From: Escherichia coli
Lineage (GTDB): Bacteria > Pseudomonadota > Gammaproteobacteria > Enterobacterales > Enterobacteriaceae
NCBI RefSeq assembly: GCF_017348835.2
Contig: NZ_CP071375.1
Reading direction: 5' to 3' (one strand)
DNA: 64,000 nt
This document shows, piece by piece, positions 10,201 to 13,200 of this stretch (position 1 is the stretch's first letter; each line of letters opens with the position of its first letter). The position numbers are program-made.

Positions 10201-13200
10201 AGCTCGGTGCGCTCACGCGTTGAAAAAAGCGAAGCCAACGCGCAAGCCACCAATGCGGTTATTCCACCGGCCAGAATGCCTGATAACTGATTTAGCGATC
10301 AGTTTCGGTGATCCACAGCTGGCCACCTTCCATCCACGCCAGCCATTGACCATCCGGTGAGAAGACCACGGCATCCGCAGAAGGCGGATTGGCGTGGTTT
10401 TCGGTTAAATACTCAACCTCGCCACTTTGCGCATGGGCACAAGCAATTCGATTATCCAGCACAAAGCCCAACCATTCTCCTGACGGATGCCAGTTAAATG
10501 CAGACTGAATATCCGTTTTGTTATGGGTTAACTGGCGCGGCTCGCCGCCCTGTGGCGAGATAAGCCACAGTTGCACAATGCCGTTATCATCACGCATTAA
10601 AAACGCGATTTGCGTACCCTGCGGATTACAGCGCACCCAGTGGCGCGGGACGTTGACTAACCCCGGATAAGCCCGATGGTGGGTAAAGGTTAAACGTCGC
10701 TGCACGACGCCGCGCGGTGGCGCGGGCAGGGTGGTTTCCGTTCCACTTAACGGCGCATCACCTGCCGCTTTCCAGCCAGCTTCATCTTGCGGTAACTCAA
10801 CGATAAACAGCTCCGGCACTTTCTCGCCCTTTGGCGAAAGTGTGTCGCCAATAAATGCCAGCGCGTGATTTCCTACCCATCCTTCTTCATAAGCACGATT
10901 GATTTCATCACTGCCAGGCTGTGGCGTGGGCGTGGTTTTGCTCACCAGCACGCACCAGTGGCTACCGCTGTATTCACGCGGATGCTGCTTTTGTACGTTG
11001 ACCGGGCCAAACGGCGCAGCAACACCGACGTTTCGCAAATCCAGCGCCGGATCGAGTTCATGCATTACATGGTCGTTATAGGTAAAGCTCCCCATTTCAC
11101 CGTTCGGGCTAAAGACATGCACATGGCTGCCGCCGCGCAGCGCTCCAGGCGTATACGGCGCGGTAATATCCATTGCATCGAGATTGCTCACCTTGCCGCC
11201 TTCAGCAATGACTCCGCGTCGATGATGGAAATCGTAATGCCATGTTTCATCAGGATTTTCCGGGCCATGGATAAAAACATATTTCTCTGACTTCGGATGA
11301 ACGGTCACCACGCCGACGTGTGCGCCCTGTGACGCGCGATAGATAACCTCGACCTCGCCGGTATGGATATTCACACGCTCAATGGTCTCGCCGGTAAACG
11401 ACGCCCCAGAAGGACGCACGTCAAATACCAGCCACTGGCTGTCGGGCGTCCAGGTATTGGTATTGGTGAGCAGGTGATTACGGGGAGCAAAGGTTATCTG
11501 TTTCATGGCGCGGTCCTGATACAAAACGGTTCCCGCCATCATACTTCACAAGGACTTCACTTTCAGACAATAGTCTTTTGCCATCGTGATGAATGTGAGT
11601 GAAAAGATGGAACATTTCGACGTGGCGATTATTGGCCTCGGCCCGGCAGGTTCGGCGTTGGCGCGAAAATTAGCTGGCAAAATGCAGGTGATCGCGCTGG
11701 ATAAAAAGCACCAGCATGGTACTGAAGGTTTCAGCAAACCTTGTGGCGGTCTGCTGGCACCGGACGCGCAGCTATCTTTTATTCGCGATGGACTGACGCT
11801 TCCTGTCGATGTGATCGCCAACCCGCAGATTTTCAGCGTCAAAACCGTCGACGTCGCCGCGTCGCTCACGCGTAACTACCAGCGAAGCTATATCAATATT
11901 AATCGCCATGCTTTCGACTTGTGGATGAAATCGCTGATCCCCGCCAACGTTGAGGTTTATCACGACAGCCTGTGTCGAAAAATCTGGCGTGAGGATGATA
12001 AATGGCATGTCATTTTTCGTGCAGACGGTTGGGAGCAGCATATTACCGCCCGCTATCTGGTCGGTGCCGATGGTGCCAACTCGATGGTGCGGCGACATCT
12101 CTACCCGGATCATCAAATCCGTAAATATGTCGCTATCCAGCAGTGGTTCGCGGAGAAACATCCGGTGCCGTTCTACTCCTGCATCTTTGATAATGCGATA
12201 ACTGACTGTTATTCATGGAGTATCAGCAAAGACGGTTATTTTATCTTTGGCGGTGCTTATCCAATGAAAGACGGTCAGACGCGTTTCACGACGCTGAAAG
12301 AGAAAATGAGCGCCTTTCAGTTCCAGTTTGGTAAGGCGGTGAAAAGCGAAAAATGCACGGTGCTGTTTCCCTCACGCTGGCAGGATTTTGTCTGCGGTAA
12401 GGACAACGCCTTTCTGATTGGTGAAGCGGCGGGATTTATCAGCGCCAGTTCGCTGGAGGGGATTAGCTATGCGCTGGATAGCGCAGAGATTCTGCGTGCG
12501 GTGTTCCTGAAACAGCCGGAGAAGAGCAACGCCGCTTACTGGCGCGCCACCCGCAAACTGCGTTTAAAACTCTTCGGCAAGATAGTAAAAAGCCGATGCC
12601 TGACCGCACCGGCTTTAAGAAAGTGGATTATGCGCAGTGGTGTGGCACATATTTCGCATTAGCCAACGCGCTTCACATCGCCCACCAGCAGGATGTAAGA
12701 GAGCGCACCAATCAACGCGACGGTGGAGATATAAACCAGTGCCGGGGCGAAGCCATAGCCTTGCAACAGATATTAGTCCACAAAAAAACACCTCATAAGA
12801 AAAGGTCTTATATCGGGCAGAAATCTGAAAAGGGAGATCAGGCGCTAAACAGGAGGGAAAGAAGAGTATGCTTTCAACGGCTTAGCTACTCTTTTAAAGG
12901 ATTAATCATGAAGTTGAATTTTAAGGGATTTTTTAAGGCTGCCAGTTTATTCCCACTAGCACTGATGCTTTCAGGCTGTATCTCGTATGCTCTGGTTTCC
13001 CATACCGCAAAGGGTACTTCAGGAAAGTATCAATCGCAGTCAGACACCATCACGGGGCTATCGCAGGCAAAGGATAGTAATGGAACAAAAGGCTATGTTT
13101 TTGTAGGGGAATCGCTGGATTACCTTATCACAGATGGTGCTGATGACATCGTTAAGATGCTCAATGATCCAGCACTTAACCGGCACAATATTCAGGTTGC

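Follow-up and report, generated by a model that had tools for sequence, protein, structure and literature searches.

The dgoRKADT operon, which serves the transport and catabolism of D-galactonate, lies between cbrA and yidX in Escherichia coli K-12. It is missing from this site in the stretch of E. coli DNA analyzed here (64,000 nucleotides (nt) of contig NZ_CP071375.1, assembly GCF_017348835.2; referred to below as the window). The explanation that we favor, with a probability of about 0.93, is that the locus carries an old deletion allele, in which ca. 4.75 kb of dgo DNA was lost and a stub of dgoT was left, and that the strain would be Dgo-negative. The deletion is one allele that is not private to this strain.

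Anatomy of the cbrA-yidX locus

The genes of K-12 MG1655 follow one another in the order cbrA, dgoT, dgoD, dgoA, dgoK, dgoR, yidX, and 4,996 nt separate the cbrA stop from the yidX start, versus 245 nt in the window. When the window was compared with K-12 by blastn, two collinear blocks were obtained that abut at window positions 12764/12766. K-12 locus positions ca. 2545–7297 are missing between them, a net loss of ca. 4.75 kb of K-12-type DNA. The whole of 12663–12907 is accounted for by alignment with dgoT and with the dgoR-yidX intergenic region, and the 92 nt preceding yidX (12816–12907) have 97.8% identity to K-12 and likewise to Escherichia albertii. Both the anatomy and the homology of the locus are those of a dgo deletion scar.

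An earlier note on this DNA had placed the end of cbrA at 12662 and the start of yidX at 12908, had given the order dgoT-dgoD-dgoA-dgoK-dgoR for K-12, and had proposed that the operon was deleted here, leaving a 37-codon frame on the minus strand that might be the end of dgoT. All of this was borne out. The TAG stop of cbrA is found at 12660–12662 and the ATG of yidX at 12908, the gene order stated is that of MG1655, the short gap and the two abutting blocks are what a deletion leaves, and the 37-codon frame is identical to K-12 DgoT residues 394–430 at 35 of 37 positions (E 1e-14), a match that chance could not explain. The same cbrA and yidX genes are annotated by RefSeq in strain PE164, a near match of the window with 2 differences in 64,000 positions; the longest frame for cbrA in the open reading frame (ORF) list opens somewhat earlier, at a GTG at 11586.

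The 245-nt spacer is thus the scar of a deletion of ca. 4.75 kb. Lost were dgoR, dgoK, dgoA, dgoD and codons 1 to 393 of dgoT, along with the dgo promoter and the greater part or the entirety of the DgoR operator inverted repeat 1 (IR1). What was left behind is a 37-codon 3' stub of dgoT devoid of promoter and start, plus ca. 135 nt of old intergenic DNA (Table 1).

The remnant of dgoT

The stub was the only significant match when the five K-12 Dgo proteins were searched against the 64-kb window by tblastn. It corresponds to the last transmembrane helix of DgoT with its tail, and its nucleotide identity to K-12 dgoT is estimated at ca. 89% over 114 nt. As in K-12, it is convergent with cbrA and the two genes overlap by 4 nt at their stops. 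The NCBI Prokaryotic Genome Annotation Pipeline (PGAP) describes the same 114 nt in PE164 as a pseudogene (“hypothetical protein, incomplete, missing N-terminus”). A functional DgoT would be encoded by an ORF of ca. 430 amino acids with a start codon, and 37 codons are left. The frame is closed by a TAA directly upstream, and its sole candidate start is a TTG at 12766, before which no convincing ribosome-binding site was recognized on reading the sequence. A promoter scan of the minus strand of 12663–12907 gave nothing, the sole match being a minus-strand site at 12945–12918, within yidX. The dgoT remnant is a pseudogene fragment. The amino acid changes that it has accumulated across lineages look neutral: an A to T change is present in the window and in strain XH990, and Escherichia sp. 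E1V33 has changes from L to F and from A to G.

The deletion junction

At the junction, dgoT is joined at about codon 394–396 to DNA at the edge of IR1. The divergence of the neighboring sequence leaves an uncertainty of a few nt in the left end point and of up to ca. 25 nt in the right one. In K-12 the sequence at the right break reads ...ATATTGTTGTACTACAAT before the break and TTAGATCAC after it, and just before the break lies the published DgoR operator IR1, ATATTGTTGTACTACAATTTAG, one of two DgoR inverted repeats that have been reported to overlap the dgo promoter (PMC12288454). Since the break falls at the edge of IR1 and the repeats overlap the promoter, the deletion took the promoter too, as well as IR1 in large part or entirely.

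At the junction we found just short chance repeats, none of them meaningful, and neither an insertion sequence (IS), the end of one nor a duplicated target site. An IS scar and a repeat-mediated deletion were both rejected on these grounds. By our own reading of the sequence, a 4-nt GTAC is located near both K-12 break sites and does not reproduce the observed junction. A regulatory RNA or a promoter in the gap was rejected as well: there was no Rfam match at the gathering threshold or at E up to 1, no terminator was found in the gap, the one promoter-like site was that within yidX, on the minus strand, and the RNA folding of 12810–12915 was nothing unusual (z-score 0.14).

Frequency and spread within E. 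coli

The abundance of the allele was assessed with a 71-nt probe across the junction (12735–12805), counting matches at 94% identity or better. It was found in 405 of 5,426 complete E. coli genomes (ca. 7.5%), once in each and always in the chromosome; by an independent count, the K-12 dgo DNA was missing in 404 of the 5,426. Among the carriers are O157:H7 TW14359, O55:H7 DEC5D, Xuzhou21 and O145 strains. About three quarters of an even sample of 60 matches were O157:H7 or O55:H7, or had no serotype but the same version of the 71-mer, the rest being O145 plus assorted human, pig, chicken and environmental isolates, and the deletion was present in all the O157:H7-type genomes sampled. The O157:H7/O55:H7 and O145 loci (TW14359, NC_013008.1; DEC5D; TR01) have the same deletion, the same 37-codon stub and the same annotation of it by PGAP as a pseudogene.

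The typical O157:H7/O55:H7 version of the 71-mer is 95.8% identical to that of the window, and that of TR01 is identical. In fact the window, O157:H7 TR01, XH990 and O169:H41 have an identical junction within 4.5-kb flanks that differ by ca. 2–3%, i.e., the window shares the junction of the O157:H7-type dgo deletion allele. Apart from these differences in the flanks, the window departs from the O157:H7 type by one extra change in the stub (the A to T that it shares with XH990) and by a shorter cbrA. The 3' end of cbrA of the type found in PE164 and F2_81 (a second strain that matches the window closely) is 9 nt, or 3 codons, shorter, ending in ...AHISH before the stop versus ...AHIPQLKD in K-12, O157:H7 and other deletion carriers. 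The motif CATATTTCGCA at this end of cbrA (12651–12662) is also found at the cbrA end of a divergent Escherichia genome with the record title “E. coli E69” (locus L019), which has no dgoT stub, and the shared motif may mean a small recombinant patch.

From these data we infer a single origin of the deletion as well as its mode of spread. It would be one old allele that was passed on by descent or moved between genomes by homologous recombination in the conserved flanks, cbrA and yidX, and its carriers would comprise the O157:H7/O55:H7 clade, O145, other E. coli lineages and at least one other species of Escherichia.

The divergent core and other Escherichia species

In a core of 71 nt around the junction the window has ca. 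70% identity to dgo+ E. coli/K-12 DNA, versus 95–98% to K-12 in the remainder of the stub and in the 92 nt that precede yidX. The dgoT side of the junction reads TAT CTG TTG CAA GGC TAT GGC TTC GCC CCG in the window and TAC CTG GCG CAG GGT TAC GGT TTC GCA CCT in K-12. Six of the eight substitutions on the dgoT side of the core fall at third codon positions (P ca. 0.02 if changes were even over codon positions, by our own binomial estimate). This bias suggests that, prior to the deletion, the segment had a history as part of a functional dgoT in another, divergent lineage. A dgo+ E. coli progenitor with window-like codons at the junction was looked for with a chimeric probe (left flank of the window plus K-12 dgoT), by which 5,005 dgo+ E. 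coli genomes were ranked. None was found among the top-ranked, the best of which and the only one aligned (JNE151685, 96.8%) was K-12-like. In no dgo+ sequence that was aligned do the codons adjoining the junction agree with those of the window, the differences being mostly at third positions.

Outside of E. coli, a scan with YidX over one genome per species recovered six loci, none of them from E. fergusonii, E. marmotae, E. ruysiae or Salmonella, and with six outgroup loci the dgo state is polarised only in part over the genus. Escherichia sp. E1V33, which represents a species-level lineage of its own, has the same stub between cbrA and yidX, and its core is identical to that of the window at 70 of 71 positions, within flanks of ca. 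89–96% identity. The type strain of E. albertii also has cbrA followed by a stub of residues 394–430 and yidX. As far as the junction, its stub resembles that of K-12, its core is 64–74% identical to that of the window and, unlike in the window, cbrA reads through into the stub. The E. albertii deletion could be an independent event. The dgo deletion allele is old and has possibly been exchanged between species. As a tentative scenario, to which we give rather less than an even chance, it would have arisen in a divergent Escherichia similar to E1V33, with a functional dgoT that differed at many synonymous positions, and recombined into E. coli through cbrA and yidX, all but ca. 70 nt being homogenised later.

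In the comparison of yidX and its upstream DNA between E. coli and E. albertii (window 12816–13564; locus L020, 6900–7654), the coding sequence has 66–72% nucleotide and 60% protein identity, whereas the neighboring genes are 92–95% identical and the 92 nt upstream 97.8%. The yidX of E1V33 looks chimeric, with the first 200 nt 99% identical and the remainder 89%. The 92 nt upstream contain a mini-ORF (ATG CTT TCA ACG GCT TAG) after an AGGAGG, and no RNA family or structure signal was found in them.

D-galactonate genes elsewhere and predicted phenotype

The earlier note had reasoned that, with the operon deleted, the strain cannot use D-galactonate through this locus, and had named dgo genes elsewhere in the same genome as something that would refute its reading. 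We found none in the window, on the PE164 chromosome (dgoD) or on its plasmid. By tblastn, the 64-kb window contains no homologues of DgoD, DgoA, DgoK or DgoR. A chimeric query was made by adding 1 kb of K-12 dgoD, placed on the opposite strand, to 1.5 kb across the junction. The chromosomes of PE164 and F2_81, which are 100% identical to the window over the 1.5 kb, each gave one place, and therefore dgoD is not located elsewhere on these chromosomes. PE164 has one plasmid, pPE164 (41.7 kb), without dgo genes. A relocated operon was thus rejected by the tblastn of the window, by the chimeric query on the chromosomes and by the content of pPE164. With the transporter, dehydratase, kinase, aldolase and repressor lost and no second copy in PE164, the strain is predicted to be Dgo-negative, i.e., unable to import or catabolise D-galactonate. 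O157:H7 belongs in phylogroup E. The growth yield of this phylogroup on D-galactonic acid lactone has been reported as 0.40, versus 0.82–1.01 in A/B1, B2 and D (P = 8e-7; PMC3147056).

Some other genomes that bear the junction (NZ_CP130667.1, NZ_CP127303.1, NZ_CM137008.1, NZ_CP021844.1 and others) matched the query of junction and dgoD at 3–4 places, which suggests a second, ectopic dgo copy. A complete dgoRKADT beside an IS3 transposase was also found on conjugative IncFIB/IncI plasmids of ca. 150 kb (locus L023). The dgo operon may be regained via mobile elements.

Alternative explanations

A recent deletion specific to this isolate or its immediate clone is hardly credible. It is true that only PE164 and F2_81 are 100% identical to the window over the 1–1.5-kb region tested, and that the additional shortening of cbrA next to the stub is found in these two alone. 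However, the junction is identical in TR01, XH990 and O169:H41 and is also present in E1V33, the 71-mer occurs in 405 genomes, and what is specific to the clone amounts to the 9-nt change in cbrA. We find it just as implausible that the locus never had dgo, the adjacency of cbrA and yidX being ancestral and the operon having been gained by insertion in K-12-type strains. Such an adjacency without dgoT stub does exist, in the record “E. coli E69” and in a metagenome-assembled genome of Pseudocitrobacter, but the window retains 37 dgoT codons in exact K-12 register, overlapping the cbrA stop, along with the distal part of the dgoR-yidX intergenic region. Neither would be expected at a site that had never carried dgo. 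Therefore, irrespective of what the deep ancestral state was, a dgo+ allele gave rise to this one. The stub could also be seen as more than debris, if a frame of 35–37 codons had been kept because the final helix of DgoT was domesticated as a small membrane protein. E. coli, E1V33 and E. albertii all have the frame open, in E. albertii as far as in-frame ATG codons upstream, and the peptide is a single hydrophobic helix. We consider this very improbable all the same: besides the upstream TAA in E. coli and the missing promoter-like site and good ribosome-binding site, the changes in the stub after the deletion are as frequently non-synonymous as synonymous, part of it is gone by a further deletion in Escherichia sp. 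MOD1-EC7003, and it is conserved no better than the neighboring non-coding DNA.

Recurrent deletion at a hot spot, formed by the palindrome of the DgoR operator on one side and dgoT codons ca. 394–396 on the other, is unlikely, although less so than the preceding alternatives; E. albertii versus E. coli and E1V33 would be the example. The E. albertii stub ends within ca. 2 codons of the same point and its right end lies in the same few nucleotides, while the K-12-like stub and the divergent core described above speak for a separate event; the right break adjoins an inverted repeat and GTAC occurs near both K-12 break sites. Against it, a single junction sequence is found within E. coli and E1V33, the GTAC microhomology reproduces neither of the observed junctions, the only other dgo loss examined (pig strain O141:H4 P13-6) is IS91-associated with different end points, and two lineages are too few for claiming a hot spot. 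An old deletion allele remains our preferred explanation, and several points weigh against parts of it. The E. albertii deletion, with nearly the same end points and a diverged core, weakens a single origin. The absence of dgo elsewhere was seen in PE164, with its 2 differences from the window, and, for dgoD, in the chromosome of F2_81. The Dgo-negative phenotype of the strain is one that we infer from the established roles of the dgo genes. Finally, given the genomes with several matches and the plasmids carrying dgoRKADT, loss at cbrA-yidX is not always loss from the cell.

Other features of the window

The coordinates of the elements of the locus are collected in Table 1, together with the RNAs found in the window, which are the expected known ones only.

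Table 1. Features of the cbrA-yidX locus and RNAs found in the window.
Feature	Coordinates	Strand	Evidence
dgoT 3' remnant, 37 codons plus stop	12659..12772	-	tblastn, nucleotide alignment to K-12 dgoT, PGAP pseudogene
Deletion junction, dgoT codon ca. 394–396 joined to DNA at DgoR IR1 edge	12765..12775	.	blastn blocks, codon-level alignment
Divergent core, 71 nt around junction	12745..12815	.	segment identities, sliding identity profile, codon alignment
Remaining dgoR-yidX intergenic DNA, ca. 135 nt, now the entire yidX upstream region	12773..12907	.	alignments
cbrA (colicin M resistance lipid reductase), intact	11607..12662	+	PE164 RefSeq annotation, ORF list, K-12 and O157:H7 alignment
yidX (lipoprotein), intact	12908..13564	+	ORF list; RefSeq annotation of PE164 and K-12
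AsdA antisense RNA of dnaA	20609-20689		
ROSE_2 thermoregulator upstream of ibpA	9646-9718		
ES036 small RNA	15090-15132		

The window differs from K-12 at several other sites. An IS200/IS605-type element (1074–2898), with a tnpA pseudogene (internal stop) and a TnpB/InsQ gene at ca. 1117–2325 on the minus strand, replaces yidI-yidJ-yidK and most of yidL (4.67 kb of K-12 DNA). A 75-nt yidL stub at ca. 2824–2898 is a second scar of gene loss. Next to it, 2895–5833 contains an intact 6-phospho-alpha-glucosidase gene and a fused phosphotransferase system gene, where K-12 has the glvG pseudogene and a split glvB/glvC, and 3125–3616 is ca. 490 nt that are extra relative to K-12. A 2.6-kb insertion between mnmE and tnaC (25663–28271) carries a gene for a ShET2/EspL2-family type III secretion effector (ca. 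25801–27963, minus strand). In place of K-12 cbrB-cbrC there are ca. 7.5 kb (37366–45663) with three genes for type III effectors, of which one is a frameshifted pseudogene and another a pseudogene with an internal stop, and the neighboring yieK (ca. 45024–45663) is frameshifted. The lpfA2 long polar fimbria operon (chaperone, usher and fimbrial subunits) adjoins pstS at 57899–64000, a site where K-12 has only a short pstS-glmS intergenic region; the end of the window falls inside lpfA2.

Comparison with other losses and significance

In comparison with the K-12 operon, located at the same cbrA-yidX site and repressed by DgoR at two inverted repeats, the window keeps the 3' end of dgoT, the 4-nt overlap with cbrA and the homologous last ca. 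135 nt before yidX, whereas it is without the five genes, their promoter and IR1 (the latter in large part or entirely). D-galactonate gene loss at the cbrA-yidX locus is a recurrent natural polymorphism. The dgoTAK genes are absent from Shigella flexneri serotype 6 (PMC3225857), and natural isolates without structural dgo genes have been noted (PMC12288454). In the O141:H4 strain P13-6 (locus L006, 1139–4334) the IS91-associated deletion goes from yidK through dgoR, and in E. whittamii (locus L018, 3285–6723) an internal deletion affects dgoA-dgoK, with dgoT, dgoD and dgoR kept at 99% protein identity to K-12. The other natural losses keep dgoR or involve IS elements, whereas the allele of the window also lacks dgoR, and its junction has no flanking direct or inverted repeats that would suggest an IS scar. 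We did not find an explicit description of the O157:H7 dgo deletion in the literature, only indirect statements. The allele as such is already known, the stub being annotated as a pseudogene in RefSeq and visible in every annotated O157:H7 genome. What is new, to a modest degree, is the sharing of the same scar across species of Escherichia; otherwise this is a routine gene-content polymorphism.

Loss-of-function mutations in dgoR have been repeatedly selected during colonisation of mice by E. coli (PMC7064181; PMC12288454). D-galactonate use matters in the gut, and a lineage without the whole operon has a different nutrient niche. For this pig strain with type III effector genes, a Dgo-negative phenotype is predicted at a locus that shares the O157:H7-type haplotype. 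If the cross-species origin were true, it would be a trans-species presence/absence polymorphism for a carbon source relevant in the gut.

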